This document shows, piece after piece, positions 8,116-47,380 of a stretch of DNA of 64,000 bases. The stretch comes from an uncultured bacterium (GTDB taxonomy: Bacteria; Edwardsbacteria; CAYGWX01), in NCBI GenBank assembly GCA_964353855.1, contig CAYGWX010000005.1:7120-71119 (forward strand), written 5' to 3'. Position numbers and translations under genes: made by a program. Positions within the stretch are counted from its first letter, which is position 1. Each line of letters starts with the position of its first letter. Under the pieces are notes generated by a model, which was given only the letters and a program-made list of their open reading frames with translations, was not told where the DNA came from and made no database searches.

Positions 8116-11100
8116 ATGACTTCCGAGACCGAAACCATCGGACTCCCCAGTGAGGAAAAGGACCTGGCCTCCCTGGTCGGCAAGCGGGTCATCGAGGATA
8201 TGCTCGCGGCCATCATCGGTTATCTGCCGACCCGGGCTGCCCTGTTCGATCCCCAGGGCCGGGCTCTCGTCGAGCTCTCTCCCTGTGACTATTGCCAGGC
8301 CCTGAAAGAACGGGACGGTTCCCCGGTGTGCACCGGGTTTTACTCGTCCTTCGTACAGGATACCGCACGGACCCAGACCCCACTGGAGCGGTCTTGCCCC
8401 GGAGGCTGCCTGATGCACTCCGAGCCCGTTCTGTTCGGCGGCCACACCCTGGGCGTCCTCCTGCTCCGTCTCTCGGCTCCCCCCACGGATCCGGCCGCGC
8501 TTGCGCCCATCGCCGATGCGTTCTCTCTTCCCAGTGAGGTTTTGCTCCAAAAGGCAGGCCGGGTCCCGAACTTCCCCGAGCCTCTCGTGCTGGCTGCCCG
8601 GGACCATCTCGCTCAAACCGCACGCTTAATCCCCGAACTCTACCGGGCTGTGCTGGCCGAACGCAAGGCGCGGGAACTGGCCGCCATCCAGGCCATCGTC
8701 GCCACGGTCAGCCAGGCCAAGGACGCCAAGAGCCTGGCCAAGCGCGCCATGGAGACGATCCTGGAGCTCCTGCATCTGGAGATCGGGGGCCTCGCTTTCT
8801 ACGATTCCCAAAAGGGCGAATTGGTCACCGCCGCGATCATCGGACTTCCCCCGGAGTTGGCGGTCCATTATGCCCGGATTTCCCTCAAGACGGGTTCCGG
8901 CATCGCAGCCCAGGTCGCCAAGACCCACCAGCCTATTTTGGTGACGGATGTCTCCCAGCCTTCCTTCACGGTGGGCAATTCCCAGGAAGTGATCAAGCAG
9001 CTCCGCATCTCCTCCCTGGTGATCATGCCGCTCCTCGTAGCCGGGGAGTTCGTCGGCGGCATCGAGGTCGCGGCCCAGGGCGAGCGGCGCTTTACCCAGG
9101 AAGATCTCGACCTCATTTCCTCGGTCGCCACTCCCCTCGGCGTGGGCCTGAGGCGCCTCCGCCTGCAAGAGGACCTCCAGACCCGGAACCAGGAACTCCT
9201 GGCTTTGAACTCCATCACGGCCAGCATCAGCCGCTCCCTGAACCTCGAGGCCATCCTCCACGATTCCCTGGACAACATCATCGAGCTCTTCCAGGCCCAG
9301 GGCGGGACGCTTTATCTCGTGGACGAGGCCGGGGAACGCCTCATCCTCTCCGCCTCCCGCAATGCGCCGGACTGGTACCTGACGATGGCCGGGACCCTCC
9401 CCTTCGGCGCGGGCCTCGGCGGTAAGACCGCCAAGGCGGGCGGCCCACCCCGCGTCGGGAACATGGCCGACCTCTACCAGGACTATCCCGACATCCTCCG
9501 CCGCATGGAGGAGACCTACGGCAAAGGGGGGGAGACCCTCTATGTCGCGGCTCCCCTGCTCTCCCGGGACCGCGTCCTCGGGGTCATGCATCTCGTGTTT
9601 CGCGGGCCCCGGGAGTTCCGCCCCGAGGAGCTCGGCCTTCTCGGCTCCATCGGGAACCAGATCGGCCCGGCCATCGAGAACGCCCGGCTTTACGAATCCG
9701 AGCACCGCCGCCGGGCCCAGCTCGCCGGGCTCTCCGAGATCGTCCGGGCCCTTTCCGCGGAGCACGATCTCGGGACCCTGCTCAAGATGATCGTGACCCG
9801 CGCCGCCGAGGTCATGCACGCCCAGGCCACCAGCCTGATGATGTGGGACGAGGAGGAAGAGCATCTCCTCATCCGGGCCAGCCAGGGCCTCAGCCCGAGA
9901 TACGCTTCCGAATACCGCATTCCCCGGGAACGGACCCTGAATCTGGAGACCTCCCCCGACGGAAGGTTCGTTCCGATCATTCTCGCTGAACTCGCCGAAC
10001 AGCCCTTTGGAAAAATGGAGTTTAACAGGGAAGAAGGCCTCTGTTCGTTATTGACCATCCCCCTCGCCGGGTCCAGGACCCCAATCCATCGGGGAAGGAG
10101 GGCCGGGCTCTCCGGGCTCCTGAACATCTACAGCAAGGGCGAGCCCCGGGAGTTCCGTCCCGAAGAGGTGGAGCTGGCCGCCATCTTCGCCGACCAGGCC
10201 GCCGTGGCCCTGGACAATGCCCGCCTCCTCGCCGAGCGCGAGCGTCGCATCGCCCAGCTCGGGGTCCTGAACCAGATCAGCCAGGCGATCAGCGCCACCC
10301 TGCGCTTCGACCAGCTTCTGGATTTGATCTACTGGCAGGTCAGCCGAGTCATGGATACGGCCAACTTCTACATCGCCCTGGCCTATCCGGAGAAGAACCT
10401 CCTGACCTTCGAATATTTCGTCGAGGACCGCAAGCGTTCGGAGCGCCAGAGCCGGCAGATGGCCAACGGCCTGACCGAACACATCCTGCGCAGCCGGAAA
10501 CCCTTGCTCATCTCCGGAAACATCGCCGCAGCCTGCCAGGACCTCGGGGTCGAGCTGATGGGTCGCCTGTCTCAATCTTATCTCGGGGTTCCGATGACGA
10601 TCGGCGAGACCATCATCGGGGTCATTGCGGTGCAGAGCTATACCCGTGAAGATGCTTACGGCACGGACGACCAGGAGCTCCTGGCCACCATCGCCCACCA
10701 GGCCGCCATCGCCGTGGAGAACGCCCGGCTCTACGAGTCCACGAGCCAGCGCATGAAGGAGATCGGCATCCTCTATCGCATCGCCCAGAGCCTCTCCACC
10801 TCCCTGGACCTGGACAGCCTGCTGGCGAGCTTCCTCGAGGTCCTGAACCAGGAGCTCGGATACCGCTGGGCCATCCTGCTCCTGGTGGACAGGGAGAAGA
10901 ATGAGCTGTTCATCCGGGCCTGCCCTCCGGATTATCCCCAGGAGGTCCAGGAGAAGGTCCGGTTCAAAATCGGGGCCGAGGGGATCTCGGGGCACGTGGC
11001 CCTGACCGGCGAGCCCGTGGTCCTTTCCGACGTCACCCGGGATCCGCGCTATGCCCCCGGACTGATCCAGGCGCGCTCCGAGATCGCGGTTCCGCTGAAG

Positions 11101-12846
11101 ATCGGGGGGGAGGTCATCGGAGTCCTGGACATCGAGGACCCGGCTCCCGGAGCCTTCGGGGACCGCGACCTCCGCCTGCTCACCTCCCTCGCCGCCCAGG
11201 TGGCCATCGCCATCGAGAACGCCCGGCTCTACCAGGCCACCTCGGAGCGCGCCAAGGAGCTGGCCATCCTCTACGATATCGGGCGCAACCTTACCCTGAA
11301 CCTGGACCTGGATAGTCTCCTGGACCAGATTTTAGGCGCCATGCAGGAATCCTTCGGCTACCTGAACTGCGCCATCCTGCTCCTGGACAGGGAGAAGAAC
11401 GAGCTCTTCATCAAGGCGGCCCGGGGATACACCGAGGAGGTCATCCGGAACCGCCGCATCCGGATCGGGGAGGAGGGCATCACCGGCTGGGTCGCGGCCC
11501 GCGGGGAGCCCCTGAACGTCCCCGATGTGAGTCGGAACGGGCGCTACGTCGAGGGGGTGGTCTCCAGCCGCTCCGAGCTGGCCGTGCCCCTGCGCATCGG
11601 CCAGGAGGTGATCGGGGTCCTGGACGTGGAGAGCCAGGAGGTCGCCGCCTTCCAGGAGAAGGACCTGCGCATGCTCACCTCCTTCGCCGCCCAGGCCGCC
11701 ATCGCCATCGAGAACGCCCGGCTCTACGCCAACCTCGAGGAGCGGGTCAAGGAGCTGGACATCCTCTCCCTGATCACCGGTCGGATCAACGCCGGTATCT
11801 CCATCTCCGAGACCCTGGAGACCGTCGTGGACGAGATCCGCAAGGTCATCCCCTACGATACCGCCATCCTCTACTTCTCCGATTCCGGGGGGACGACGCT
11901 TCACCCCCAGATCGTGCGGTTGGCCTCGTCGGAATTCCCCCAGGATTACATCGACCGGCTCCGCACCTTTCCCGTGCCTTTCGGCAAGGGCCTGGTCGGG
12001 TGGTCGGCCCAGGAGAAGGAGCCCTTGAACTGCCCCAACGTCCTCCAGGACCCCCGGCGCCTTGACCTTCCCGAGACGCCCGCTCTTCTCTCGGTCCTGG
12101 CCGTTCCCTTCGTCGTGGAGCAGAAGACCATCGGGGCCCTGGCCCTGTCCCAGCTCGGAGAGCGGCGGTTCGCTTCCTCCGATCTCCGGCTCCTTCGGGT
12201 CCTGGCCGACGATTGCGCCATCGCCATCCACAAGGCCCGGCTCTTCGACGAGACCCAGCGTCTGGCCATCCTGGACGGCCTCACCGGCCTGGCCAACAGC
12301 CGGCACTTCTACAACGAGCTCAAGAAGGAGATGGAGCGCGCCGAGCGCTACAGCAAGCCTGTGTCCCTCATCCTCTTCGACATCGATGACTTCAAGAAGG
12401 TCAACGATTCCCTGGGCCACCAGGTCGGGGACAACCTGCTCCGCGAGATGGCTCAGATCCTGCCCACCCTCACGCGCAAGAGCGACCTCCTGGCCCGCTA
12501 CGGCGGGGAGGAGTTCGCCGTGTTGCTGCCCGAGACCAGCCGGGAGCACGCCCTGGCCACAGCCGAGCGCATCCGGGCCAAGGTGGAGGGCCATGTCTAC
12601 CCCGGCGTGGACCTTCCCCGGGGCCGGATGACGATCAGCCTGGGAGTCGCCACCTATCCCTACGATGCGGCCACCCACCGGGATTTCGTCCGCGCCGCGG
12701 ACATCGCCCTGTACGCCGCCAAGCGGGCCGGAAAGAACCGGGTCTTCTCCTATGAGACCTTGAGCCTCAAGCAGTCCCCCGCCCCCGGCGGGGCCGGGGG
12801 GGAGCCTGACACCGGCTACGAGTTCCGCGGCTCCCCGCCTGAATGA
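8116..12846 (+). CDS. Giant multidomain diguanylate cyclase: N-terminal Cys-containing sensor (PocR-like), about 7 GAF domains, C-terminal GGDEF
   Basis: GAF domains are delimited by recurring AIENARLYE linker helices (six ENARLY-type plus HKARLF). The C-terminus carries RYGGEEF (GGDEF A-site) with an upstream DxLT region, so the active-site motif is intact. Confidence 0.8.
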   Translation: MTSETETIGLPSEEKDLASLVGKRVIEDMLAAIIGYLPTRAALFDPQGRALVELSPCDYCQALKERDGSPVCTGFYSSFVQDTARTQTPLERSCPGGCLMHSEPVLFGGHTLGVLLLRLSAPPTDPAALAPIADAFSLPSEVLLQKAGRVPNFPEPLVLAARDHLAQTARLIPELYRAVLAERKARELAAIQAIVATVSQAKDAKSLAKRAMETILELLHLEIGGLAFYDSQKGELVTAAIIGLPPELAVHYARISLKTGSGIAAQVAKTHQPILVTDVSQPSFTVGNSQEVIKQLRISSLVIMPLLVAGEFVGGIEVAAQGERRFTQEDLDLISSVATPLGVGLRRLRLQEDLQTRNQELLALNSITASISRSLNLEAILHDSLDNIIELFQAQGGTLYLVDEAGERLILSASRNAPDWYLTMAGTLPFGAGLGGKTAKAGGPPRVGNMADLYQDYPDILRRMEETYGKGGETLYVAAPLLSRDRVLGVMHLVFRGPREFRPEELGLLGSIGNQIGPAIENARLYESEHRRRAQLAGLSEIVRALSAEHDLGTLLKMIVTRAAEVMHAQATSLMMWDEEEEHLLIRASQGLSPRYASEYRIPRERTLNLETSPDGRFVPIILAELAEQPFGKMEFNREEGLCSLLTIPLAGSRTPIHRGRRAGLSGLLNIYSKGEPREFRPEEVELAAIFADQAAVALDNARLLAERERRIAQLGVLNQISQAISATLRFDQLLDLIYWQVSRVMDTANFYIALAYPEKNLLTFEYFVEDRKRSERQSRQMANGLTEHILRSRKPLLISGNIAAACQDLGVELMGRLSQSYLGVPMTIGETIIGVIAVQSYTREDAYGTDDQELLATIAHQAAIAVENARLYESTSQRMKEIGILYRIAQSLSTSLDLDSLLASFLEVLNQELGYRWAILLLVDREKNELFIRACPPDYPQEVQEKVRFKIGAEGISGHVALTGEPVVLSDVTRDPRYAPGLIQARSEIAVPLKIGGEVIGVLDIEDPAPGAFGDRDLRLLTSLAAQVAIAIENARLYQATSERAKELAILYDIGRNLTLNLDLDSLLDQILGAMQESFGYLNCAILLLDREKNELFIKAARGYTEEVIRNRRIRIGEEGITGWVAARGEPLNVPDVSRNGRYVEGVVSSRSELAVPLRIGQEVIGVLDVESQEVAAFQEKDLRMLTSFAAQAAIAIENARLYANLEERVKELDILSLITGRINAGISISETLETVVDEIRKVIPYDTAILYFSDSGGTTLHPQIVRLASSEFPQDYIDRLRTFPVPFGKGLVGWSAQEKEPLNCPNVLQDPRRLDLPETPALLSVLAVPFVVEQKTIGALALSQLGERRFASSDLRLLRVLADDCAIAIHKARLFDETQRLAILDGLTGLANSRHFYNELKKEMERAERYSKPVSLILFDIDDFKKVNDSLGHQVGDNLLREMAQILPTLTRKSDLLARYGGEEFAVLLPETSREHALATAERIRAKVEGHVYPGVDLPRGRMTISLGVATYPYDAATHRDFVRAADIALYAAKRAGKNRVFSYETLSLKQSPAPGGAGGEPDTGYEFRGSPPE

Positions 12847-12895
12847 CATGTGAAAGGCCTTAACCCATTGTCCCAACTACGCTTGGGCATTAAAA

Positions 12896-13105
12896 CCACT
12901 CCCTGGAGTGGAGCTTCCACTCACCTGAGTGAAGCCGCCACTCACCTGAGTGAAGCCGTCGCTCCCCTGAGTGAAACCACCACTCACCTGAGTGAAGCCG
13001 CTACTCACCCCAGTGAAGCCGCCACTCACCTGAGTGAAGCCGTCACTCCCCGGAGCGGAGCCGTCACTCTTAGGAGTGGAGACATCACTCCCCCTGGTAT
13101 CGGGG
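12896..13105. repeat. Array of about 9-10 tandem 21-bp direct repeats (consensus CACTCACCTGAGTGAAGCCGC), each with a 7-2-7 inverted repeat TCACTCA-cc-TGAGTGA
   Basis: Read directly from 12896 to 13105. Units are contiguous with no spacers. The 21-bp period equals two helical turns. Sits between the DGC stop and the pilT start. Confidence 0.8.
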
Positions 13106-13161
13106 GGACCACCCCCTTGACCCTGAGGCCCTAAATCTGGTAAACTCTTAGCTAAATTACG

Positions 13162-14304
13162 ATGCCCGAAAACGACTTCACCCACGAATACGGCGAAGCG
13201 CCCCTGGTTTCGCTCGAGGCCCTGCCCATCGACCAGCTCCTCGAGGAGCTGGTCCTGCGCAACGCCTCGGACATCCACCTCCGGGTGGGCGAGCCCCCGG
13301 CCTACCGGGTGTTCGGCGAGCTCACCCGCTCCGAGCTGACCCCCCTCTCCGCCGACGAGCTCAAGAAGCTCCTCTACGCCGTGATGAACGAGGAGCGGCG
13401 CGAGCGCTTCGAGCGCACCTGCGAGCTGGACATGTCCTACGCCATCCAGGGCGTGGCCCGCTTCCGCATCTCGGTCTTCCGCCAGCGCGGGGAGATCGGC
13501 GCCGTGCTCCGGGTCATCCCGCTCAAGCTCAAGTCCATCGACGACTGGGGCCTGCCCCAGATCATCAAGCAGTTCGCCACCCTGCCCAGAGGGCTCATCC
13601 TGGTCACCGGGCCCACCGGCTCCGGCAAATCCACCACCCTCTCCGCCATGGTGGACTACATCAACGAGTCCCGCCGGAGCCACATCATCACCATCGAGGA
13701 CCCCCTGGAGTACGTGCACCACGACAAGCAGTCCGTGGTGGAGCAGCGCGAGATCGGGGTGGATACCCGTTCCTTCGCCTCGGCCCTGGCCCACGTCATG
13801 CGCCAGAATCCGGACGTCATCATGGTCGGCGAGCTCCGCGACCATGAGACCATGTCCCTGGCCATGTCCGCGGCCGAGACCGGGCATCTCGTCCTCTCCA
13901 CCCTGCACACCATGGACGCCTCCCAGACCGTGGGCCGGATCATCGACGCCTTCTCCCCTGAGGAGCAGACCCAGGTGAGGCTCCAGCTCTCCACCGTGCT
14001 CCAGGGCGTGGTCTCCCAGACCCTGCTCCGTCGGACCGACGGCCCGGGCCTGGTGGCCGCCTTCGAGATCATGACCTGTACCGGGGCCATCAAGAGCCTC
14101 ATCCGCGAGGGCAAGACCCCGCAGATATATTCCCTGATCCAGACCGGCAGCCGTTACGGCATGCAGACCCTGGACCAGTCTTTGAAGGAGCTTCTGTTCA
14201 AGGGCATCGTCTCGGCCGAGGATGCCCTGGCCCGCTCGGCCAACCCCCAGGAGTTCGAGGGCGCCATCAATGCCCTCCAGCCCCCCCGGGGCCCGGGGGG
14301 CTGA
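13162..14304 (+). CDS. pilT: Type IV pilus retraction ATPase PilT family
   Basis: Walker A GPTGSGKST, Asp box, Walker B DVIMVGELRD, His box, and the PilT signature AIKSLIREGK. Confidence 0.85.
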   Translation: MPENDFTHEYGEAPLVSLEALPIDQLLEELVLRNASDIHLRVGEPPAYRVFGELTRSELTPLSADELKKLLYAVMNEERRERFERTCELDMSYAIQGVARFRISVFRQRGEIGAVLRVIPLKLKSIDDWGLPQIIKQFATLPRGLILVTGPTGSGKSTTLSAMVDYINESRRSHIITIEDPLEYVHHDKQSVVEQREIGVDTRSFASALAHVMRQNPDVIMVGELRDHETMSLAMSAAETGHLVLSTLHTMDASQTVGRIIDAFSPEEQTQVRLQLSTVLQGVVSQTLLRRTDGPGLVAAFEIMTCTGAIKSLIREGKTPQIYSLIQTGSRYGMQTLDQSLKELLFKGIVSAEDALARSANPQEFEGAINALQPPRGPGG

Positions 14305-14309
14305 CGGGC

Positions 14310-14504
14310 TTGAAGGTTCGTGATATGATCAAGAGGATCGAGACGGATGGCTGGTTTTTAATAGCCACGAAAGGCAGCCACCGCCAATACAAGCATCCCA
14401 CGAAACTGGGACGGGTAACCATTGCCGGCCAGCCTAACCATGACTTGGCCGCCGGAACCTTGAACAGTATCCTGAAGCAGGCCCGACTGAAGGAGTTGAA
14501 CTAG
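14310..14504 (+). CDS. hicA: HicA-family mRNA interferase toxin
   Basis: 64 aa with a YcfA/HicA-like KGSHRQYKHP motif. 5 nt after the pilT stop. Local GC is about 52% against about 68% in flanking DNA. Confidence 0.75.
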   Translation: MKVRDMIKRIETDGWFLIATKGSHRQYKHPTKLGRVTIAGQPNHDLAAGTLNSILKQARLKELN

Positions 14505-14506
14505 CA

Positions 14507-14719
14507 ATGCACCGCTTCCTTATCGTCATCGAAAGGGCCGACGGGAACTATTCGGCCTATTCTCCGGATCTTCCGGGGTGCGCGGCCACCGGCGCGACCC
14601 GCGAAGAGGCCGAACGGAACATGCACGAGGCCATCGAGATGCACGTTCGGGGGCTTGAGGAGGACAAGCTTCCTGTGCCCGAGTCCAATTCCTTCGCCGA
14701 ATACTTAGCCATACCATAA
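14507..14719 (+). CDS. hicB: HicB-family antitoxin
   Basis: 70 aa with the UPF0150/HicB N-terminal fold signature (YSAYSPDLPGCAATGATREEA). 2 nt after hicA. Confidence 0.7.
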   Translation: MHRFLIVIERADGNYSAYSPDLPGCAATGATREEAERNMHEAIEMHVRGLEEDKLPVPESNSFAEYLAIP

Positions 14720-14802
14720 GGGCAGCTAACCAACGAACCGATGTTTCCGTCCACCCGTCTAAGCGTTCAACCGTCTAACTTTTGCAGGGTGGGTTGATCC
14801 CC

Positions 14803-15873
14803 ATGCAGATGCTGGACCTGCTCTACGCCACCTTCACCAAGAACGCCTCCGACCTCGTCCTGAAGGCCGGCAGCCCGCCCCTGGTCCGCATCCAGGGCGA
14901 GCTCATCCCCCTGGCCTATCCGCCCCTCACCGCGGACGAGACCCGCGCCCTGGTCCTCTCCATCCTCACCCGGGTCCAGGTGGAGAAGCTGGAGCGGGAC
15001 CTCGAGCTGGACATCGCCACCAGCCTGTCCAACCTCGCCCGCTTCCGGGTGAACGTCTTCCACCAGCAGGGAACCCTGGCCATGGTCGCCCGGGTGGTGA
15101 GGAGCAAGATCCCCAGCCTGGATGACCTCGGCCTCCCGCTCGCGGCCAAGGCCCTGGCCTTGAAATCCAGGGGCCTGGTCCTGGTGACCGGCCCGGCCGG
15201 GTGCGGCAAGTCCACGACCCTGGCGGCGCTCTTAGAGTTCCGCAACCAGACCCTGCCCTGCCACATCATGACCATCGAGGACCCCATCGAGTTCGTCTAC
15301 CTGGGCAAGAAGGCCCTGGTCAACCAGCGCGAGATCGGGGTGGACACCCTCTCCTACGCCGAGGCCCTGCGCAGTGTCCTGCGCCAGGACCCGGACGCCA
15401 TCATGGTCGGGGAGCTCCGCGACCGCGAGACCCTGGGCATGGCCCTGACCGCGGCCGAGACCGGGCATCTGGTCCTCTCCACGATGCACACCTCCTCGGC
15501 CGTGGAGACGATCGACCGCATGGTCGGCATCTTCCCGGCCCACCAGGAATCCCAGGTCCGCCTGCAGATCTCGGTGAACCTGGGCGGCATCATCTGTCAG
15601 CAGCTCCTCGCCCGGGCGGACGGCAAGGGCCGGCTCCCGGCCTATGAGATCCTGCTGGTCAACGCCGCCGTGCGTTCCCTGATCCGCGAGGGCAAGACGG
15701 CCCAGCTCCCCTCCGCCATCCAGACCGGGGCCAGGCTGGGCATGTCCACGATGAACGCCTACCTCGCCGAGCTCGTCAAGCGGGGCGTGGTGACCCTCGA
15801 GGAGGCCATGAAGAAGACCGAGACCCCGGAGGAGCTGAAGGGGATGGCCGGAAGCAAGCCTTCGGCTTCCTAA
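14803..15873 (+). CDS. Second PilT/PilU-family ATPase paralog
   Basis: Walker A GPAGCGKST, DAIMVGELRD, and AVRSLIREGK. Start moved to the ATG at 14803 (MQMLDLLY); the track begins at a TTG at 14782. Confidence 0.8.
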   Translation: MQMLDLLYATFTKNASDLVLKAGSPPLVRIQGELIPLAYPPLTADETRALVLSILTRVQVEKLERDLELDIATSLSNLARFRVNVFHQQGTLAMVARVVRSKIPSLDDLGLPLAAKALALKSRGLVLVTGPAGCGKSTTLAALLEFRNQTLPCHIMTIEDPIEFVYLGKKALVNQREIGVDTLSYAEALRSVLRQDPDAIMVGELRDRETLGMALTAAETGHLVLSTMHTSSAVETIDRMVGIFPAHQESQVRLQISVNLGGIICQQLLARADGKGRLPAYEILLVNAAVRSLIREGKTAQLPSAIQTGARLGMSTMNAYLAELVKRGVVTLEEAMKKTETPEELKGMAGSKPSAS

Positions 15874-15900
15874 AGAAAAGGATAATCCGCCAAAAGAAGA

Positions 15901-15928
15901 GGGCCGCCCAATGGGCGGCCCTTTAATT
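15901..15928. terminator. Bidirectional rho-independent terminator between convergent pilT paralog and antitoxin
   Basis: GGGCCGCCC-aat-GGGCGGCCC stem-loop followed by TTTAATT on the plus strand and a T-rich run (CTCTTCTTTTG) on the minus strand. Confidence 0.6.
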
Positions 15929-15952
15929 GCGGGGTGGGCTCAAGGTCTATTT

Positions 15953-16189
15953 TCAGGAGCTGCGTTTCCGGGGTCCGAGGCCGTGCTTCGCTCGCCCGGA
16001 CAGTCGCCGTTTGATCTCGGCCAACCCGATCGTCGCGGCCTTGCCTTCCCTTTCCTTGGCCTGGCGCAGACAGCGCAGGTCCTCGTAATCCTCCAGCTCC
16101 TCCCGGAGCCTTAGGAATTGAGCATAGGGAAGAACGGCAAAGGCCTTTCTCCCGTTTTTTTCGATGATCTGGGCTTCCATATGGCTCAT
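15953..16189 (-). CDS. Type II antitoxin (Phd/YefM or RelB-like) partner of the upstream RelE-type toxin
   Basis: 78 aa, acidic/basic with a predicted N-terminal beta-strand then helices (KNGRKAFAVLPYAQFLRLREELED). 9 nt downstream of the toxin gene. Local GC is about 50%. Confidence 0.55.
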   Translation of the reverse strand: MSHMEAQIIEKNGRKAFAVLPYAQFLRLREELEDYEDLRCLRQAKEREGKAATIGLAEIKRRLSGRAKHGLGPRKRSS

Positions 16190-16198
16190 GGCTTCTCC

Positions 16199-16447
16199 CT
16201 ATCGGTAGGCTTCTCTGCGGTGGCGGATGCGATAGACGATGATCGTTCTCCCGTCCACTTCGAACAGCACGCGGTATGCGCCGACTCGCATGCGGTATTC
16301 CGGAGTGAAGTTCGTGAGGTGCTTCACGTCTCCCCGCAGGTCTTTTAGCATGGTTTCGATCTTTTCCAGGATACGGCTCTGCGCCCGGGTCGAAAGACGC
16401 TCCAGATCCTTGACGGCTCCGGGCTTGAACCGGACCTCGTAGGCCAT
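16199..16447 (-). CDS. RelE/ParE-family toxin
   Basis: 82 aa ending ...RTIIVYRIRHRREAYR, the typical RelE/ParE C-terminus. Toxin-first gene order as in higBA. Confidence 0.7.
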   Translation of the reverse strand: MAYEVRFKPGAVKDLERLSTRAQSRILEKIETMLKDLRGDVKHLTNFTPEYRMRVGAYRVLFEVDGRTIIVYRIRHRREAYR

Positions 16448-16601
16448 GTCTTCCCCGTATTATGGGATGGGTTCTGTTGCCGGGCTGACCGCGGACATCA
16501 TCTTGCTCGTCATCCTGAACTTGGTTCAGGATCTCGTCGTTTCTTATCTCACCTAAGAGGATTATACTCGAAACCGGGCTGAAAATCAAGGGGCTCCCCA
16601 A

Positions 16602-16734
16602 AAAGGAGGCGATGAAGAAGACCGAGACCCCGGAGGAGCTGAAGGGGATGGCTGGCACCCATCCCGCGCCCTCATAGCCGCCCCCCGGCGCAATCTAAGG
16701 ATAAAGTAAAAAGGGCCGCCCAAAAGGGCGGCCC
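16602..16734 (+). pseudogene. Relic copy of the pilT-paralog 3' coding end plus its terminator hairpin (insertion scar)
   Basis: A 41-bp run (atgaagaagaccgagaccccggaggagctgaaggggatggc) is identical to 15809-15849. It is followed by ctaaggataaag and GGGCCGCCC-aaaa-GGGCGGCCC, mirroring 15873-15921. Confidence 0.7.
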
Positions 16735-16952
16735 TTGTGTTTGTGGGGCGGGGGCGAAGCCCCGCCCCCCTCCTGTTACAACTCATTACCATTTTTTACT
16801 ATTCATTACTCTTCTTTTCCTTCCGTCTCACTATCTCACCTTCACGATCCGCACAATCTCGTCATGCTGAACTTGTTTCAGCATCTCTCTTCCCGGCATC
16901 ATTGCGAGGAGCGTAGCGACGAAGCAATCTCGCCGTACCTCCTCACTCCTTT

Positions 16953-19079
16953 CTACCTCACCTTCACAATCCTCCCTAACCCGGCCTCCCTTTCCAGCCC
17001 TCTGAGGAAGTACACCCCCGGCGCCAGCCCCTCCCCGACCCGGTCTCCCCGGAAGGTCCCGACCCTCCGTCCCGCTATGTCGTAGAGCGCGAATCGCTCG
17101 GCCTCGTGGCCCGGCACCGTGGTGAACGAGACGAATGGATTAGGTATGATCTTCAACCGTCCAACCGTCAACCCGTCCAACGATCTAACCGAGGGTTGGT
17201 CTTCCACGAACGACGTTCCGCCGTCCGTGGTCTTCAAAATCGTGCCGTCCGTTCCGACGGCGTACCCTGTGTTGTTATCAACGGGGAAATAAACCGAGTG
17301 AAGGATGGTGGACGATCCCGGATCCTGGCCCGTCCAATGGCTTCCCCCGTCCGTGGTTTTGAGGATGGTGCACAGACCTCGACTGTAATCTCCTCCCACG
17401 GCATATCCGGTTTGAGAACTCACCGGGAAATAGATTGAGAAGATATAATGAGTTGAATCCTGCCTTGTCCAGCTTGTCCCTCCGTTGGTGGTCTTCGCAA
17501 TGGTGTTAGCCCCTGCGGCATAGCCCGTTTGAGCATTGATCGGAAAGTGCACCGACAGGAGAGAGGGGTACGTTGAACTTTGATACACCCAATTGCTCCC
17601 GCCGTTCGTGGTCTTGTAGATACCTCCATCTCCCGCGATGTAACCGGTATCTGCATCCACAGGGAAGTAGACCGACCAGAGGTAATTGTTCGTAATGATT
17701 CGTTGGTCCACCCAGGTTGAGCCCCCGTCGGTGGTCTTCACGACGGCGCCTTGGTCACCTACGGCATAGCCGGTCTGGACATTCACGGGGAAATGGACGG
17801 AGCGCAGTGGGCTAAATATTCCAGTGTTCTGTCGCGTCCAAATCGCCCCGCCATCCGTGGTCTTCAAGGCATACGCTCCATACCCATCCGCCCCTACAAT
17901 GTAGCCGGTTTGGGCGTCCACCGGAAAATGCACGGCCCGAGTATATGAAAAGGATGTGTCCGCAGTCGGGCTTGCCCAGACGGTCCCTCCGTTGGTGGTC
18001 TTTAAAATAGTACCCCAGGGGCTGACGGAATAGCCGGTCTGAGCGCCTGTTGGGAAGGAGACCGAGAGCAAATCATAGGTTATTCCCTGAGTTTTTCTCA
18101 CCCAGGTATTTCCGCCATCCGTCGTCTTTAGAACCGACCCGCCTTCTCCCGCGATGTATCCTGTCTGGGCGTTTTGGGGAAAACCAACGGATAACAAAGA
18201 ATCCTTTACTGAGAAAACTTGATTGGCCCAGGTAGCTCCGCCATCCGTCGTTTTTAGAATGACGCCGGAAAAGGCAACTCGTGCTCCCACAGCATAACCG
18301 GTTAAGGCATTCATGGGGAAATGGACTGCATAGAGATTGTGGGACGTGCCTGCACTCTGCGGAGCCCAGGTGGTTCCGCCATTGGTAGTTTTTAATATCC
18401 TTCCGTTGGAGCCCGTTGCGTACCCCGTGGTGGCGTCCACAGAAAAATGGACCGAATAAAGGTCGTCCGTGGTTCCAGAATGCAGCGTGTCCCAGACGGC
18501 TCCCCCGTTTGTGGTCTTTCGGATGGCGCCTCCGCGTCCCGCGGCGTATCCGGTCTGGGCGTTCCCCGGAAAGTAAACCGAGCGAAGGCCGGGGTTGTAA
18601 TACAACGGCTGCGGAGCCCAGGTCGCACCCCCGTTGGTGGTCTTGAGGATGGTGGTATTGCTGCCGTCGTCGTCCCTGGCGATGTACCCGGTATCCGCCC
18701 CTGCTGGGAAGTGGACGCAGTAAAGGCGTGTGGTGAACCCTGAGGTCTGCCGGACCCAGGAGGTTCCGCCGTTTACGGTCTTGAGTATGATGCCGGAATC
18801 CCCCACGGCGTAGCCAGTTTGGGGCCCTGCCGGAAAATGCACAGAACGTAGGGTGAAGGTTGTTCCCGAGGTCAGGACCCTCCATGTGGCTCCCCCGTCC
18901 GTAGTTTTCATCATTGTTCCATAGGCTCCGACCGTGTATCCTGTGTTTTCGTCCACGAAGCACTGTCCGGCCAGCGTGTTCCCCTGCGGCAGGGGGTTCT
19001 GCCAGAACCATCCGGCCTGCCCGAATCCGGGCAATAAAAATAGCACGGCCGGGATCAAGACGAGTCTCAAGTAACACAT
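16953..19079 (-). CDS. Secreted BNR/Asp-box repeat double beta-propeller protein with T9SS C-terminal sorting domain
   Basis: At least 14 repeats of ILKTT(D/N)GG(A/T)TW (BNR S-x-D-x-G-x-T-W). The C-terminal ~80 aa match por_Secre_tail style (KIIPNPF...GVYFLR...). Start set at the ATG at 19079, with AAGGAGG 6 nt upstream and a signal peptide MCYLRLVLIPAVLFLL. Confidence 0.75.
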   Translation of the reverse strand: MCYLRLVLIPAVLFLLPGFGQAGWFWQNPLPQGNTLAGQCFVDENTGYTVGAYGTMMKTTDGGATWRVLTSGTTFTLRSVHFPAGPQTGYAVGDSGIILKTVNGGTSWVRQTSGFTTRLYCVHFPAGADTGYIARDDDGSNTTILKTTNGGATWAPQPLYYNPGLRSVYFPGNAQTGYAAGRGGAIRKTTNGGAVWDTLHSGTTDDLYSVHFSVDATTGYATGSNGRILKTTNGGTTWAPQSAGTSHNLYAVHFPMNALTGYAVGARVAFSGVILKTTDGGATWANQVFSVKDSLLSVGFPQNAQTGYIAGEGGSVLKTTDGGNTWVRKTQGITYDLLSVSFPTGAQTGYSVSPWGTILKTTNGGTVWASPTADTSFSYTRAVHFPVDAQTGYIVGADGYGAYALKTTDGGAIWTRQNTGIFSPLRSVHFPVNVQTGYAVGDQGAVVKTTDGGSTWVDQRIITNNYLWSVYFPVDADTGYIAGDGGIYKTTNGGSNWVYQSSTYPSLLSVHFPINAQTGYAAGANTIAKTTNGGTSWTRQDSTHYIFSIYFPVSSQTGYAVGGDYSRGLCTILKTTDGGSHWTGQDPGSSTILHSVYFPVDNNTGYAVGTDGTILKTTDGGTSFVEDQPSVRSLDGLTVGRLKIIPNPFVSFTTVPGHEAERFALYDIAGRRVGTFRGDRVGEGLAPGVYFLRGLEREAGLGRIVKVR

Positions 19080-19300
19080 CGCTTCCTCCTTTCCGTACCT
19101 ATCGGGTGAACAGGCTTTATGCCTCTGTTCCAAAGACCCTTATATCATAAGGCGAACCCCCCGATTTTGTCAAGCCCTCATTTTGACTTTTTTCATGCCT
19201 TCCCGTCTGGGGGGTTAATCCCTTCCATCCGTGGTTCTCTCGGTCTTTCCCCCAGCCCCGCCCTCAGCCTGCCCCGCCTGTCTCCGCTCCCTGCGCCAAT

Positions 19301-19424
19301 AATTAGTGTGAAGTTAGCGTGAAATTAGAGAGAAGTTAGTGTTAAATTAGTGTTAAATTAGACTTAAATTAGTGTTAAATTAGACACAACTTAGTGTGAA
19401 CTTGGCGTGAAGATGGCGTGAGGT
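19301..19424. repeat. AT-rich tandem repeat of about 10 units with a 12-bp period (TTAGTGTTAAAT / GGCGTGAAGATG)
   Basis: Direct reading. Lies 170-290 bp upstream of the BNR cargo gene start. The last units grade into the GGCGTGAGGTG form seen elsewhere in the window. Confidence 0.7.
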
Positions 19425-19568
19425 GCTCCTATAGTGCGTTGGTTTACTGTGAGTTATGGCTAAAAGGGGGGAGCTTAAGGGTGGGCTTGAACTTGGAACT
19501 GTCGCTGTAAGTACTTGAAGAAAAATAGGTTGGATTTGTTTAGCGATTGCCGTCAGCTCATTTCAGCC

Positions 19569-22500
19569 CTAAAAGTACGCCCGGACCTCGGCCCTGGCCA
19601 GGACCTGGGGCCGGGCTCCCTCCCGGGTCCTTCCGGAATAGGACACCCGGCCGGTGATGTACTCGTTGAGCTTCATCTCCCCTCCTAAACTGAAGTCGCC
19701 CGAGAACCCCACGGGCCTCTCCGTGATCACGTCCGCGGGCAGGAGCTCTTTGGGAGTCCTGGTCGTCCGGCGGGTGAGCACCCCGCTGAGTTCAAACTGG
19801 CCTTTGGTCGCAAACGTCCGCCTGAGTCCCGGCCTTGCCTGCAAGGCGAACAGCTCCATCTTTCCCAGGTAGGGATAGAAGGCCGGCTCCTCCACCCAGG
19901 TCCACATCGCTCCCGGCGAAAGCCGTATCTCCCAGGGGAGAGACGGCCGGTGCACCCAGCCCGCTCTGAGTGAGCGGTCCAGGACCTTGTTTTCTATCCC
20001 GATCTCCGTGCTCCCGTTCCGCGAAAGGCTCTGGTCTCCAACCAGCTCAAAGGTCGTCCGCTCGGTGGCGGCCACCCGGTAGGTCCCCTCGTGCTCGATC
20101 TCGAACCGTTCCGCATGCCGCCCCTCCACCCGGTTGTCTTCCTCGTCGCTCCTCCGGATGCGGTAGATCCACTCTCCCTGGACCTGCTCCGTCTTCTGGG
20201 AAATACTCAGTCTGGCCTCAAGGTACGTCCTCCCGTACACCGTGGCCTCGTCCCTCTGGAATGTGCCGGGGTTTAGAAGATAAACCTTCAGCCGGTCCTG
20301 CTCCCGGCTCTCCTCCTCTACCGAGGCGAACACGTCCGAGGAGATGGCCGAGAGTCCCGCGCCCCGGCCCAGAAGGATGAGCCTCTGTGAGGCCTTGAGC
20401 GTGGTCACCGGGCTCTCTCCTCCCTGGTCCAGGAGCACCCTTCGCCAGTCCCCTCCCGGAGAGCGGTAGTATCTTCCGGTCGCAGGATCACGACGCCAGT
20501 CCCCCTGTCCCTCGGTAACCTGATAGAACTGCTCGCTCTTGAGCGCCGTGGCCGTGTTGGTGAACTCGTAGCTGGTGTTGGAAGTGAGCGCCCCCTTGCT
20601 CGGGGAATAATCTAACAGGGCCTTTCCCAGTTCGGTTATCACCCCGCTCCCCACCCTTCCCGGCTCCATGACCTTCCTTCTCCGGGTGTAGGACAGGTTC
20701 GTGGAATAGCCCCCGGTTGAGGAAAACCCTGCCGTTCCTCCGTACGTCCGCGTCCTGGAATCCAGCACCCATCCACCGGGCTCATAGACCCTGTCCTTCC
20801 TCAGGCCCCCGGTGAGCTCTCCGGTCAAGCCTCCTCCGGTCTTCGGCCCAAGGCGATAGCCGAGTCCCCCTCCCGGTTCCTCGTACTCGTAGCCAGAGCG
20901 CAGGAGCCCCGCCCCGTATCCGCTCCAGCGCTCATGGGCATAGCTCGCCCTGGGAGTGAGCCACCTGATCTTCTGGCCCAGGGAGTAAAACTGTCTCTCT
21001 CTTCTCCGCTCATTCACCGAATCCGGGGAGGAGGAAAGGGTATCTGCAGACCTGACCAGCTCGGCCTGGGCCTTGACCATCGTGTTTCCGGATAACTCCA
21101 GACCCCCGCTCCGTCTCAGCGCCCAGCGCCCGTCCGTCCGGGAGAGCCTCCCGGCCTCGCCGGTTAGCGACCAATTGGGCCTGGGCTTATAGACCAGGCT
21201 TGCCTCCGCGTCCTTCTGGCCCAGGCCGAGTCCCTGGTCCAGGTTCCACTGATAGCCGTGATCCAGGGACCGTTGCTGATAAAAGGAGGAAAACTCAGGG
21301 GCGACCCAGTTGCCCCTCCCTTTGAACTCCAGATCCCCAAGCCCCTTCCCCGCCAAGTTCATTCTCTTCGGGGTCCAATCCCAGCTTCCCCTGAATGCCT
21401 TTCCTCGGGAGACGTGTCCCGGAAGGTCGCTGAAGGTGTTCCGGTCCCTTCGCGAGGCCGCGAATTCAAAGCTCGCCCCCCCTGCATCCTTCACCTTGTA
21501 ACCCAGGCTGGCGCCCACGAGTTCCATCCGCTCGGGCAGGGGAAGGAATGTCCTCGGGGTGTATTCCCCGGCCCCGTTTCCCACGAAGACATACCCACCC
21601 AGCGTCCCGTCATAGCGGTATTCCCCCCTTCCGGGGCCGACCCGGGAGAAGCTCACCTGATAGTCCCCCCGGGGCCGGCCTGAATAGGTGAAGATGGAGT
21701 CGGTCCGGATATAATCCCCGTTTCCCGGGCCCACATAGCTGGCCCCGGAAATGACCGCTTTCTTGGGGTCCGTGCCCGCCGCCCTCAGGGCCTCCCTGGT
21801 GGAATCGCTCAAGGCGAAGCTCAAGGGCCTCTCCCTCTCATCCTCCTCCCTGAGCCCGGTGAGAACCAGGCTGAGCCTGTCCCTGAGCCCTAGAAGGGTC
21901 TGTCTTCCTCCCGCGAAATTCCTGCGGTACAGGTCGTTGGTGTACTCGAAGTCTGCCGCGATTCTGGACTGGCCCGTGATCAGCCTCCTGGGCGTGAAGA
22001 AGAGCTCCCCGTTGGTGTAGTCTATCGTGTAGTCGTTGTTCTCGCCCCTTCTCAGGAGCTCCCCGTCCAGCCAGACTTTCTCGGTCCCGCCCAGGATCAC
22101 GATCTCCCGGCGCCCGGTCTCGGACGTCAGGGGATAAGGCCCCTGCTTCCCTTCCGTGCCGGAGAATCGGTTCTCCGCGAACCGACCCTTGGGCACGGCA
22201 TAGGCCAGGGTCAGCGTCCCGGGCTTGAAGTTTAGGTCCACCCTCGCCCCCGTCAGGCGGCGCTCCAGCGCGGTCCAGACCCCGTCTTTCAAAGCGAAGT
22301 CGTAGTCCCCGACCAGGGCCTGGCCCCGGTTCCCCCGGACGGCCAGAGAAACCTTGTCTATCTCCTCCAGACGTTCGGTCGTTCCCTCGGGCTGGATGGG
22401 CAGGTTCTCGTCCGACAGGAGCCCCTCCATCTCAACCCCGGACGTCACCTGTCCCGAAAGCGAGAGCCTGAGCGATTGTTCCAGGGAAAGATCCTGCTGG

Positions 22501-29696: not shown

Positions 29697-29737
29697 GGAG
29701 GGCGTGAAGTGGGCGTGAAGTGGGCGTGAGGTGGGCG
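29697..29737. repeat. 3.5 tandem copies of the 12-bp unit GGGCGTGAAGTG
   Basis: Read directly. 215-255 bp upstream of the M6 protease start. Confidence 0.7.
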
Positions 29738-36075: not shown

Positions 36076-36146
36076 AGGGAGGTAACAGGGAGGGATCAGG
36101 GAGGAAAGAGGGAGGGATGTGGGCGTGCAATGGGCTTTTAATGGGG
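36076..36146. repeat. Four tandem 11-bp AGGGAGGnnnn units followed by a GTGGGCGTGCAATGGG motif
   Basis: Read directly. 210-280 bp upstream of the PorQ-like gene. The GTGGG(C/T)GT(G/T)CAATGGG motif recurs at 50059-50075. Confidence 0.65.
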
Positions 36147-36186
36147 GAGCGGTGGGCGTTCAACCCTCCCTCACACCTCCTCTCCT

Positions 36187-45962: not shown

Positions 45963-46164
45963 TAAGAAACTCTAAATGTCCGCGCAATGCTACGATGCAA
46001 GCCTTTCTGGTCCTCCTTGGAAATCAGGGGCAACCACTATATATTGTGGTCCCCTCGGAATTGTCTCGTAAGCAGCGCCGATAAAGCTCGGTTACGTCTG
46101 TTGAACCAAAACAGCCCGCAGAATGGGGATCTCCGAAAGGCCTCCGAAATCCGAGAGGGGTTCC

Positions 46165-46212
46165 CGCCTACCTCACGCCTACCTCACGCCTACCTCACGC
46201 CTACCCCACCCC
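46165..46212. repeat. 3 tandem copies of CCTCACGCCTAC (reverse complement GGCGTGAGGTAG)
   Basis: Read directly. Opposite orientation to the copies at 29697 and 47495. Confidence 0.7.
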
Positions 46213-46214
46213 CT

Positions 46215-46275
46215 TTTGGATACCCGACCACTATATATAGTGGGTGTTCCCTTTTTCACAATGAACGGCTGATTT
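46215..46275. repeat. Copy B of a 55-60 bp repeated element whose core is the perfect palindrome CCACTATATATAGTGG
   Basis: CCGACCACTATATATAGTGGGTGTTCCCTTTTTCACAATGAACGGCTGATTTTGGAGG. Related copy A lies at 46024-46060 and copy C at 46915-46975 (CCGACCACTATATGTTGTGGTGGTCCCCTATTTCACAAGGAGAGGCTGTTGTGAG). Confidence 0.7.
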
Positions 46276-46334: not shown

Positions 46335-46787
46335 CTATTCGGTTATTCTTAAGATAAATACACCCTTCGGATCAACCTGTTTTACTATTTCAAATACATG
46401 TTCTTTCTCGGGCTGTTTTGTCGAGTAAGAACGTCCATCCCTCGTATTCAAGTCGACGGTGCCATCGTGAGACGTGGTGACTGCAAACACTTTCCCTTCC
46501 ATTATTAATTGTTTCGCTTGGTACCATTCTATTTTCTCTTTTGGGGAATTGCGAACGATCTGCCAAAAAAAGGGGCGTAGAAAGGAGAGGTCAGAGAACG
46601 CAAGCAAGATTCGATGAGAATCACGTAAAGCCTCTTTCTCACGCTGGGTTATTGCAAGCTCATTAGATTTAAAACAGGGGACTAGTTGATCAACAAATTC
46701 GTCTGCCGGCATTTTCTTCGGATTCTCAGCCATCGCGATGCAAACGAATCCTATAAAGAAGGAAACTACCAAAGGCAACCGCATCAT
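46335..46787 (-). CDS. Hypothetical secreted protein encoded in a low-GC (about 40%) cassette
   Basis: Signal peptide MMRLPLVVSFFIGFVCIAMA. Codon usage and GC differ sharply from flanking DNA. Flanked by repeat copies B and C. Confidence 0.5.
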   Translation of the reverse strand: MMRLPLVVSFFIGFVCIAMAENPKKMPADEFVDQLVPCFKSNELAITQREKEALRDSHRILLAFSDLSFLRPFFWQIVRNSPKEKIEWYQAKQLIMEGKVFAVTTSHDGTVDLNTRDGRSYSTKQPEKEHVFEIVKQVDPKGVFILRITE

Positions 46788-46859: not shown

Positions 46860-46915
46860 CCTCCAAATAATCATCCCCAAAAGCAACATGATCACCCCAA
46901 CGGTCTTCAAACCCC
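46860..46915. pseudogene. About 55-bp relic fragment of the lspA 3' coding end (about 90% identical to 50278-50335)
   Basis: ctcttcctccaaataatcatccccaaaagcaacatgatcaccccaacggtc aligns with ctcttcctccaaataaccatccccaaaagcaacataatcacccccacggtc inside lspA (codons VTVGVIMLLLGMVIWRK). Same orientation. Confidence 0.7.
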
Positions 46916-47380
46916 GACCACTATATGTTGTGGTGGTCCCCTATTTCACAAGGAGAGGCTGTTGTGAGATAAATCATAGCATAATCAGCCCCATAAGGAC
47001 AAGGGGGCAGGCAGGAGCGGGAAGAAACCCGTTGCCATCTTCGGTTCGACAAAAAGGTCAGGGCTAAGAGCCCTGGCCCAAAGGAGGAGGCGATCCGGTC
47101 AGGATGCTCCCCCCATCCACTCCCGCTCTTTTCACCGGCATTGCACTGGCTTTACCCCGGCTTTACACCCTCTTTACACCCATTTAGCACCCTTCGGGAG
47201 GCTATACAAGGAGAGATCGTGCTGCGTGCGCCCGGAAGAGAGGCTTCGGAAGGATTTAGATCGGCACCAGTCTACTGATCGGATGTCGTCTGCCAACAGA
47301 AGGATGTCTGCATCTCCGTTAAAAGCCAAGGGGTTCCCCTTGTACAAGAGACACCCCTATGGCCTTTCTGATGTTACAAG

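Follow-up and report, generated by a model that had tools for sequence, protein, structure and literature searches.

Short palindromic DNA in tandem is known in bacteria from operator, iteron and centromere arrays such as F-plasmid sopC (12 x 43 bp, with inverted repeats), R1 parC (11-bp iterons, ParR), the 22-bp iterons of R6K, the omega-protein heptads and the ARG boxes of ArgR (18 + 3 = 21-bp spacing). In these systems, contiguous direct repeats with dyads stand at or next to a promoter, at near-integral helical turns and on one face of the DNA, with periods of approximately 1 to 2 turns (parC, R6K) or approximately 4 turns (sopC). Here we describe an array of comparable geometry in 64 kb of DNA from an uncultured Edwardsbacteria bacterium (contig CAYGWX010000005.1; the whole analysed stretch is called the window), where 10 contiguous, head-to-tail 21-bp units occupy positions 12896-13105 between a GGDEF diguanylate cyclase gene and pilT. 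Our favoured, still tentative, reading is that this array is a helically phased, multi-site DNA landing pad for a putative dimeric protein, tunable by slippage. Its 21-bp period, 10 units and 6-2-6 dyad fit the iteron and centromere pattern, and its dyad-symmetric sites are maintained, with 5 of 6 arm pairs covarying. It differs from those systems in occurring at several unrelated loci, in its quick sequence turnover and in being dispensable in sister strains. Moreover, no par, rep, sop or argR gene lies near it, and the window is ordinary chromosome, carrying rpoD, dnaG, ileS, glyA and rnf genes; nothing points to a centromere or to the nucleoprotein-filament seeding site that an initial reading of the sequence alone had offered as an option. 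On the basis of these comparisons, the array would work most like a tandem operator or iteron array, and it appears to evolve most like the two kinds of repeat considered next.

Repetitive extragenic palindromes (REPs) and bacterial interspersed mosaic elements (BIMEs) of Enterobacteria and Pseudomonas are likewise short, imperfect, extragenic palindromes in arrays, typically past stop codons between co-directional genes, and are found at many loci with lineage-specific sequence and strain-variable copy number or presence. They can bind host proteins and influence neighbouring expression, a likeness in which binding is putative on the side of our array. Their units are approximately 35-40 bp long and alternate in orientation with variable linkers, whereas the array is strictly head-to-tail with 21-bp units at a constant two-turn period; the conserved GTAG head is absent from its unit, and the window has no RAYT, Y1_Tnp or other transposase domain. 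In addition, the array is known from a handful of loci so far and is persistently linked to one gene family, here called Y. Promoter variable-number tandem repeats (VNTRs) and contingency repeats, such as the 7-bp repeats of Haemophilus influenzae hmw1A/hmw2A and mycobacterial MIRU-type repeats, share with it a position between the upstream gene and the start codon, a copy number that differs between close strains and an association with surface or pilus genes. By contrast, our unit is palindromic, exceeds these repeats in length and spans an exact multiple of the helical turn, and its hosts are environmental, uncultivated organisms. CRISPR arrays also have direct repeats with internal dyads behind an A/T-rich flank, but their repeats are approximately 23-50 bp long and separated by unique spacers. 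We rejected this identity, as the sequence-only reading had done: the 21-bp units are contiguous and without spacers, the 7-nt linker AAGCCGC is repeated, and the Pfam annotation, which covered the scanned open reading frames (ORFs) across the window, contains no Cas domains and hence no cas genes.

The repeat module itself consists of three parts.

12847 to 12896, plus strand: 50-nt left flank ('leader') of the module, ending in an A-rich run, ATTAAAAC, and homologous to array left flanks at unrelated loci.
12897 to 13085, plus strand: nine 21-bp units, CACTCA-cc-TGAGTG followed by the 7-nt linker AAGCCGC, from Tandem Repeats Finder, repeat families, a register/pair table and covariation counts.
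13086 to 13110, plus strand: degenerate terminal unit and right end of the module, CACTCCCCCTGGTATCGGGGGG, with the dyad CCCCC-N7-GGGGG; the same end is present on the array at locus L012.

The 10 units run in register from 12896/12897. Tandem Repeats Finder reports 12896-13069 with a period of 21 (8.3 copies, 83% matches, score 213), and its alternative 42-bp reading reaches 13094. Units 2, 3, 5 and 7 are identical (CCACTCACCTGAGTGAAGCCG), units 1, 4, 6, 8 and 9 are variants of that unit, and unit 10 is degenerate (TCACTCCCCCTGGTATCGGGG). The nine to ten contiguous repeats counted in the sequence-only reading were therefore borne out, and the consensus it gave is exact. Its 7-2-7 palindrome, however, has to be shortened: the consensus dyad is 6-2-6 (CACTCA cc TGAGTG) with a C/A mismatch at the seventh pair, and the perfect 7-2-7 form TCACTCAccTGAGTGA has zero occurrences in the array. 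Unit 1 alone has a true 7-2-7 dyad, CCACTCC ct GGAGTGG, via a compensated A-T to C-G change. The proposal that each unit is palindromic holds for most of them, except that units 4, 6 and 8 have 1-2 dyad mismatches and unit 10 has the different dyad listed above. Within the window, the 14-mer CACTCACCTGAGTG (up to 2 mismatches) matches the array only, with 9 matches compared to 0.37 expected, and 0 of 100 shuffles reach 9; related arrays were found in GTDB and metagenome collections. The sequence-only reading had named an assembly artefact as one way in which it could fail. This is not the case, since a separate short-read (Logan) assembly of run ERR3804374 independently carries both array edges. 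That assembly breaks within the identical units, with L002 ending at approximately 12946 and L001 beginning at approximately 13013, and the exact internal unit number rests on the window's own assembly.

The dyads are maintained across the close family of arrays, for which we compiled 39 distinct units. In this set, 87.6% of arm cells are paired, 26 cells have changed on both sides and 5 of the 6 pairs covary, with the caveat that the units share a common descent. In 500 shuffles, the fraction paired, the double-change count and the covariation score always stay below the observed values, and all slid controls are far lower; 5 covarying pairs are reached by 60 of the 500. Compensated arm types are CACTCA/TGAGTG, CACTCC/GGAGTG, CACTGA/TCAGTG, CGTGCT/AGCACG and GTAGA/TCTAC. 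An alternative 6-7-6 register, in which a right arm pairs over the 7-nt linker with the next left arm, receives support identical to 6-2-6, and the most apt description of the array is hence a lattice in which inverted half-sites alternate, spaced by 8 and 13 bp.

The arm mismatches bear on the level at which these dyads are constrained. Relative to the sense strand of the nearest gene, they comprise 44 G:T and 43 A:C; in the array's intrinsic orientation, the close family has 18 G:T and 17 A:C (summed per-array counts). Since RNA hairpins under selection should show a clear G:U excess, the flat ratio points to a DNA-level or mutational constraint, and strand-specific RNA hairpins were rejected. 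More generally, we consider it improbable that the array is an RNA element, i.e., a string of 5-6-bp hairpins in the 3' untranslated region of the GGDEF mRNA or in a 5' leader that would act on stability, termination or translation or titrate an RNA-binding protein. The stem covariation and a conserved 7-nt 'loop' (GAGCCGY) would fit a protein-bound hairpin in the 6-7-6 reading, folding is stronger for the plus strand than for shuffled sequence (z = -5.4), and consensus promoters upstream of the arrays in L038 and L016 are aimed into them; at two further loci, discussed below, the array is so close to the start codon that no room is left for a promoter. Against this, neither strand tolerates wobble pairs, the arrays face either way with respect to the nearest gene, no U-tract follows the plus-strand hairpins, the sole predicted and conserved promoter in the window is downstream of the array, and nothing in RNA folding would fix the period at two DNA helical turns. 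A known RNA family was also rejected: Rfam gave nothing on the array at gathering thresholds and only chance-level microRNA and frameshift-element matches at E up to 10, and whole-array folding merely shows that a self-complementary repeat folds back.

Given that 21 nt equals seven codons and that one plus-strand frame is open across the whole array, translation into a heptad repeat was also considered, either as the 94-aa ORF at 12850-13134 (THLSEAA repeats) or as a read-through C-terminal extension of the GGDEF protein, whose stop codon is in frame with this ORF. At L015, a TPR ORF even continues through the array as a Pro/Ser-rich tail. However, this possibility is largely refuted, and we regard it as very improbable. 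GC contents at the three codon positions (GC1/2/3) are 0.59/0.62/0.58 in the ORF compared to approximately 0.66/0.43/0.87-0.96 in the flanking genes, and over the array as a whole GC3 is 0.54-0.58 and GC2 0.62-0.65, the latter against approximately 0.42 in the flanking genes. ACT, AGT and GAA occur in nearly every unit, while they account for 6% of Thr, 4% of Ser and 21% of Glu codons in window genes, which makes all three rare codons in this genome. The variable sites fall on second codon positions of the open frame, and the ORF has neither a Pfam match nor a Shine-Dalgarno sequence. In the homologous array of L012, whose linker and terminal unit match those of the window, TAG interrupts the corresponding frame in 8 of 10 units, and L016 has TGA there in 10 of 11; across the arrays compared, no reading frame is both open and conserved. 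Because of the atypical codon statistics and the in-frame stops of a homologous array, we take the array to be non-coding and the 94-aa ORF to be merely the repeat read as protein, as the sequence-only reading had judged. In the window (12844-12850) and at L012 (3979-3984), the upstream gene ends with a stop codon that lies in the open frame of the array, and the TPR ORF of L015 (3-1382) has no stop through the whole array; this is probably due to chance (about 1 in 9), although read-through into the array may occur.

Beyond the window, we searched public genome and metagenome collections for the motif CACTC-N4-GAGTG in two phased copies. Matches were found at 4 loci in GTDB representative genomes, none of them from the window's own species, at 34 in metagenomes and at 0 in viral contigs, and approximately half of these loci are long 21-bp arrays. 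The comparative data are metagenomic contigs, mostly from short-read assemblies that are prone to break or collapse at such repeats. A phage origin was rejected, with no match to the motif among 2.9 million viral contigs. Nothing relevant on tandem repeats with a 21-bp period, helical phasing or dyads was found in literature searches, and the repeat family is apparently undescribed. A close group of arrays has the linker (A/G)AGCCG(C/T) in common with the window.

L032 and L029: unit identical to that of the window.
L038 and L017: close variants of the window unit.
L036 and L020: unit CACTCCCCGGAGTG.
L012: unit CACTCGTTAGAGTG.

The similarity extends beyond the units. The arrays of L012 and the window have the same terminal unit, CACTCCCCCYGGTATCGGGG, and their left flanks are identical at 29 of 50 positions (58%) in a gap-free alignment. 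In L012, this flank comprises the 50 nt from the stop codon of a TPR gene to the array, and in both cases the module starts directly past the stop codon of the upstream gene. A flank at the Y loci L038/L017 has approximately 58% identity to that of the window over approximately 38 nt, by eye. Since the window and L012 share flank and terminal unit despite unrelated upstream genes (GGDEF versus TPR), flank, array and end unit together constitute the inherited unit, present at unrelated loci. This module was found at at least 4 such loci, on different metagenomic contigs of related organisms, with one copy in the window. At six loci of the close family the array edge is 32-60 nt from a start codon, in either orientation, which a symmetric DNA site would lead one to expect; at the other Y loci this distance is 35-400 nt. 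As a separate observation, the dyad CACTCA-NN-TGAGTG and its relatives form no more than a pair of sites, spaced by 21 bp and in conserved intergenic contexts, in other metagenomic organisms, namely at L008/L011/L023, L022, L034, L035, L018/L028, L019/L031, L027 and L040. These look like ordinary two-site operators, and a protein family recognising the dyad at 21-bp spacing may be widespread.

At L015, L016, L017, L029/L032 and L038, the array lies just upstream of a homologous gene of 222-224 aa, Y, whose products start with MPDYIPxPDxxFxxW and have mutual identities down to 27%. We retrieved loci through the Y protein alone, ignoring the motif, as an unbiased test of this linkage. Among the 8 distinct loci obtained, 7 have a 21-bp-period array upstream of Y, most of them dyad-symmetric, and L044 is the sole Y locus without one. 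The arrays recovered in this way are as follows.

L041: unit AATCCCCACCTGGGGACTGGC, x10.
L043: unit GATGGCAGAGACATTTTGGCG, x6.5.
L045-47: unit with CGGGA-GG-TCCCG, x10.5.
L048: unit with AGCA|TGCT, at least 2.6 copies, the contig beginning within the array.
L049: unit with GGGGAA-AG-TTCCCC, approximately x8.
L050: CCACTCC-TT-GGAATGG, x3.3.
L051-53: CCATTCC-CG-GGAATGG, approximately x6.

The remaining intergenic regions of the same approximately 90 kb have no 21-bp arrays, except for one further array in L048. Because 7 of 8 Y-retrieved loci carry 21-bp arrays of differing units, the period and, mostly, the 6-2-6 dyad appear to persist upstream of Y while the sequence turns over. The motif of unit 1 in the window (CCACTCC..GGAGTGG) recurs, unselected, at the most distant Y loci (L050 and L051-53, with Y 32-33% identical), which points to a conserved, sequence-specific partner.

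Y itself has 83 homologues, all unannotated, with no Pfam or PHROG domain, and no Y gene is present in the window. In the AlphaFold model (predicted local distance difference test score, pLDDT, 87), a long helical hairpin precedes an FN3 domain. A Foldseek comparison with the PDB returned FN3 domains only, a PDB profile search gave nothing significant, and no DNA-binding fold was detected. As a candidate for the array-binding protein, Y was therefore set aside: the predicted helical hairpin and FN3 domain look structural, a result that neither supports nor strictly excludes such a role. Y family members are 220-227 aa long and combine the N-terminal motif MPDYIPxPD with a 55-residue helix and, at the C terminus, an FN3 domain; a 21-bp-period array almost always stands upstream of their genes. 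They include the genes at L032 10154-10822 (minus strand), L038 198-866 (minus), L017 1518-2186 (minus), L016 1621-2295 (plus) and L041 10001-10675 (plus), among others. Downstream of Y there are often BNR/Ycf48-like repeat proteins, or small proteins with an MshEN-like motif (by eye) and a PAS histidine kinase.

In the window, the array stands in front of pilT and not Y. The gene order is as the sequence-only reading had described it (diguanylate cyclase, then pilT-hicAB-pilT), and the features around the module are listed here.

8116 to 12846, plus strand: PocR-GAF(x7)-GGDEF diguanylate cyclase gene, from the ORF list (Pfam GAF, GGDEF and PocR); context, outside the element.
13117 to 13146, plus strand: sigma-70-type core promoter of pilT, with -35 TTGACC, an 18-nt spacer and the extended -10 TGgTAAACT, from a consensus scan.
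13162 to 14304, plus strand: pilT, type IV pilus retraction ATPase (Pfam T2SSE; homologues named PilT).
14310 to 14719: hicA/hicB, context downstream of pilT.
14782 to 15873: second pilT, context downstream of hicA/hicB.

The TGA stop codon of the GGDEF gene is 50 nt upstream of the array, and the array ends approximately 6 bp upstream of the predicted pilT -35 box. The consensus scan upstream of pilT returned 1 site compared to 0.1 expected, and the window encodes a full-length, standard RpoD. pilT is without a Shine-Dalgarno sequence, and its leader is very short or absent. The orthologous GGDEF-pilT spacers of L056 (PilT 98%, DNA 96% identical) and L054 (PilT 89%, on a 314-kb contig) are approximately 120 nt long and have neither the array nor its left flank; hicAB is also absent from both. 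When the three spacers are aligned, conservation resumes at about 13111, approximately 6 bp before the -35 box. L054 and L056 have the core promoter TTGAAC, 17 nt and TGaTACACT, where the window has TTGACC and an 18-nt spacer, and TTAGC stands just before the ATG in all three. Since these spacers are without the array but carry the same core promoter, we read the array in the window as a recent, strain-specific insertion directly beside a pre-existing pilT promoter.

Two other interpretations of this intergenic region were rejected. A sigma-54 promoter with the array as enhancer would rely on a GG-N10-GC match (CTGGTAAACTCTTAGCT) in the pilT leader, which would put the transcription start site (TSS) past the ATG and is absent from the Y-gene leaders (by eye). 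For an intrinsic terminator of the GGDEF gene, no U-tract follows any plus-strand hairpin, and the sole terminator-like match is on the minus strand, in unit 1.

The insertion is one of several at this locus. Relative to L056 and L054, the window has extra DNA at 14305-14800 and 15886-19570. The former places hicAB between the two pilT paralogues; the extra genes also include a ParE toxin with an upstream small antitoxin-like ORF without a Pfam match (15953-16447, minus strand) and a BNR/Ycf48-like cargo gene of the type IX secretion system (T9SS) at 16953-19133, together with its own 11-bp array. Taken together with the 21-bp array, these differences make the pilT locus a hotspot for strain-specific insertion. 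Among PilT homologues from named groups, the nearest (60-67% identity) belong to Candidatus Edwardsbacteria and candidate division WOR-3, and the T9SS cargo genes of the window are compatible with a bacterium of the FCB (Fibrobacterota-Chlorobiota-Bacteroidota) group.

Because the array was inserted in a strain-specific manner and its family is dispersed and hypervariable, a selfish or neutral extragenic palindromic minisatellite is a serious rival and the main one. Such an element, resembling REPs, BIMEs or miniature inverted-repeat transposable elements (MITEs), would spread past stop codons and change by slippage, with no selected function at this locus and an incidental effect on pilT; we consider this somewhat unlikely. 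The presence/absence polymorphism relative to L056 and L054 is what it would predict, as are the homologous flank and identical terminal unit at the unrelated locus L012, starting right after a stop codon. The arrays also change fast. L036 and L020 have 100% and 98% identical flanks around array segments of 259 and 336 bp with very different unit content, and L032 and L029 have five and three identical units, respectively, so that copy number differs among related strains, in short-read assemblies, when checked as the sequence-only reading had proposed. The hybrid units of L020 resemble products of unequal exchange, and these genomes are generally rich in 7-, 8- and 11-bp intergenic tandem repeats. 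However, drift alone does not predict that a 21-bp array should persist upstream of Y down to approximately 30% identity, at 7 of 8 loci and with the neighbouring intergenic regions free of them, nor that the 21-bp period is held while the sequence changes. The window also has no transposase or RAYT-like gene, and no terminal inverted repeats or target duplications are visible by eye, no formal search having been made.

The same variability would be expected of a contingency repeat that acts near a promoter irrespective of its sequence, as a rheostat whose tandem, hairpin-prone units would render the region highly mutable, with 21-bp steps that shift distance but not phase and thereby create heritable variation in pilT or Y expression, e.g., as bet-hedging against pilus- or surface-specific phages. 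We think this unlikely. In its favour, the period and not the sequence is conserved across the Y loci, copy number varies between strains, and the neighbouring genes are pilus or surface related (pilT; an FN3-domain protein at Y); 11-bp arrays in the window likewise precede T9SS cargo genes. There is also a precedent, in that 7-bp repeats upstream of the Haemophilus hmw genes are reported to grade expression (PMC12721329). Sequence-agnostic action would, however, leave the maintenance of the dyads and the distant recurrence of CCACTCC/GGAGTGG unexplained, and all copy-number differences were seen in short-read assemblies, in which repeats may be collapsed.

Returning to the landing pad, we propose that a strain-specific copy of a dispersed, fast-evolving module, consisting of a flank and a 21-bp palindromic array, landed between the GGDEF stop codon and the pilT -35 box. 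Each unit would give two inverted 6-bp half-sites, and with a period of two helical turns equivalent sites would all lie on one face of the DNA. If the TSS is approximately 7 nt past the -10 box, the dyad centres would be at approximately -60.5, -81.5 and -102.5, on a single helical face, which is the face used by class I activators in CRP-type regulation. Acting on double-stranded DNA as a multi-site pad, the array would be bound cooperatively along its length by a putative dimeric DNA-binding protein that raises or lowers the firing of the abutting promoter, i.e., that of pilT in the window and that of Y at the ancestral locus. Slippage or unequal exchange would alter the number of sites, and hence the strength of the effect, without altering helical phase, amounting to a form of gain control. 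We favour this model because it jointly explains the period held over deep divergence, the wobble-free dyads, the placement near promoters in either orientation, the recurrent motif and the fast change in copy number. The array of dimeric transcription-factor operators put forward in the sequence-only reading is compatible with these data and, given the covariation, the flat wobble counts, the promoter proximity and the recurrent CCACTCC-NN-GGARTGG, is favoured on balance, while still unproven.

Several observations weigh against the landing pad, and those on the binder, the arms, the linker and the sister strains limit our confidence in it. No transcription-factor gene lies consistently next to the arrays, and no candidate binder emerged. 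The pilT gene does without the array in L056 and L054, whose PilT is 98% and 89% identical to that of the window, and the array is therefore not an essential operator of the pilT block. At L012 and L049, only 32-35 nt separate array and start codon, and these arrays are probably transcribed. The 7-nt linker is asymmetric and, in the close family, conserved at least as well as the arms, as is rarely the case in operators of symmetric dimers. 'Compensated' arms could also arise without selection, by template switching within quasi-palindromes, and non-palindromic hybrid units do exist in L020. Finally, the arms turn over (TCCCCA/TGGGGA, GGGGAA/TTCCCC, CGGGA/TCCCG) and the array at the Y locus of L043 has no detectable dyad, a pattern more in keeping with a structural or mutational constraint than with a single, fixed protein specificity.

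A bolder version of the landing pad, which we hold to be doubtful, is that the arrays are portable operator cassettes. The ancestral control region of Y would have been copying itself in front of other promoters, namely pilT here and a HEAT/ScpA operon and others elsewhere, in a lineage of FCB-group candidate phyla whose closest named relatives are Edwardsbacteria and WOR-3. A putative filament-forming dimer would occupy the array and bring these promoters under its control, and unit number would act as a heritable gain.

The array is not the only repeat in the window. At least 6 further intergenic arrays have an 11-bp period, i.e., one helical turn (19301-19421, 29700-29737, 36076-36160, 46165-46209, 47128-47193 and 49994-50042), and another is found in L032 (6808-6858). 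They have a common GG(C/G/T)GTG(A/T) core in either orientation (GGGCGTGAAGT, AATTAGTGTGA and GTGGGTGTTCA; reverse complements GGCGTGAGGTA and GGTGTAAAG), and each is approximately 170-400 nt upstream of a minus-strand gene. Four of these genes are T9SS-related (Por_Secre_tail or FlgD_ig cargo, or PorV-like), one encodes a small Pfam-less protein and one is PhzF. The 11-bp arrays have the appearance of multi-site, direct-repeat operators through which one regulator would control genes for secreted proteins. An element of approximately 50 bp, a palindrome CCACTATATATAGTGG (or variant) followed by TTTCACAA, is present in three copies (46033-46060, 46226-46275 and 46912-46960) surrounding a small gene without a Pfam match (46335-46787), within an island of low GC (0.46) at 46-47 kb. 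Short intergenic tandem repeats of other periods occur at 47497-47524 in the window, at L036 6867-6907, at several sites in L041 and at L043 1-68 and 12943-13438. The 7-bp repeats of the relatives (CCCTAAT x6, CAGGGAT and GAGTAGA) resemble the short tandemly repeated repetitive sequences (STRRs) of cyanobacteria, and an 8-bp repeat, AACCCTTC, reaches approximately 62 copies. The lineage as a whole may thus be prone to generate or tolerate micro- and minisatellites.

Two further observations concern genes of the window. Next to dnaG-rpoD, a 363-aa protein (62900-63991, minus strand) has an RNA polymerase alpha-CTD-like domain, a sigma-70 region-4-like helix-turn-helix and a MarR/TrmB-like winged helix, making it an unusual, multi-module, predicted DNA-binding protein. 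GC3 is low (0.57-0.67, compared to 0.76-0.96 in the housekeeping genes sampled) in a T9SS cargo gene (47381-49735), the BNR/Ycf48-like gene (16953-19133) and a subtilase gene (30980-32899), which hints at different origin or expression constraints.

For practical purposes, the arrays break short-read assemblies and get called as spurious 'genes' of 90-135 aa, and their recognition improves annotation in this lineage. They also flag the widespread, uncharacterised Y family and provide a handle for studying gene and array together. Should they turn out to be selfish minisatellites, they would still represent a new BIME-like class of repeat outside the Proteobacteria. If the arrays bind protein, they would be a case of bacterial regulatory DNA that is moved and amplified as a unit, rewiring promoters and being tuned by copy number, in organisms known from metagenomes only; and if they are indeed portable operator cassettes, they would constitute a new class of mobile cis-regulatory element in bacteria.

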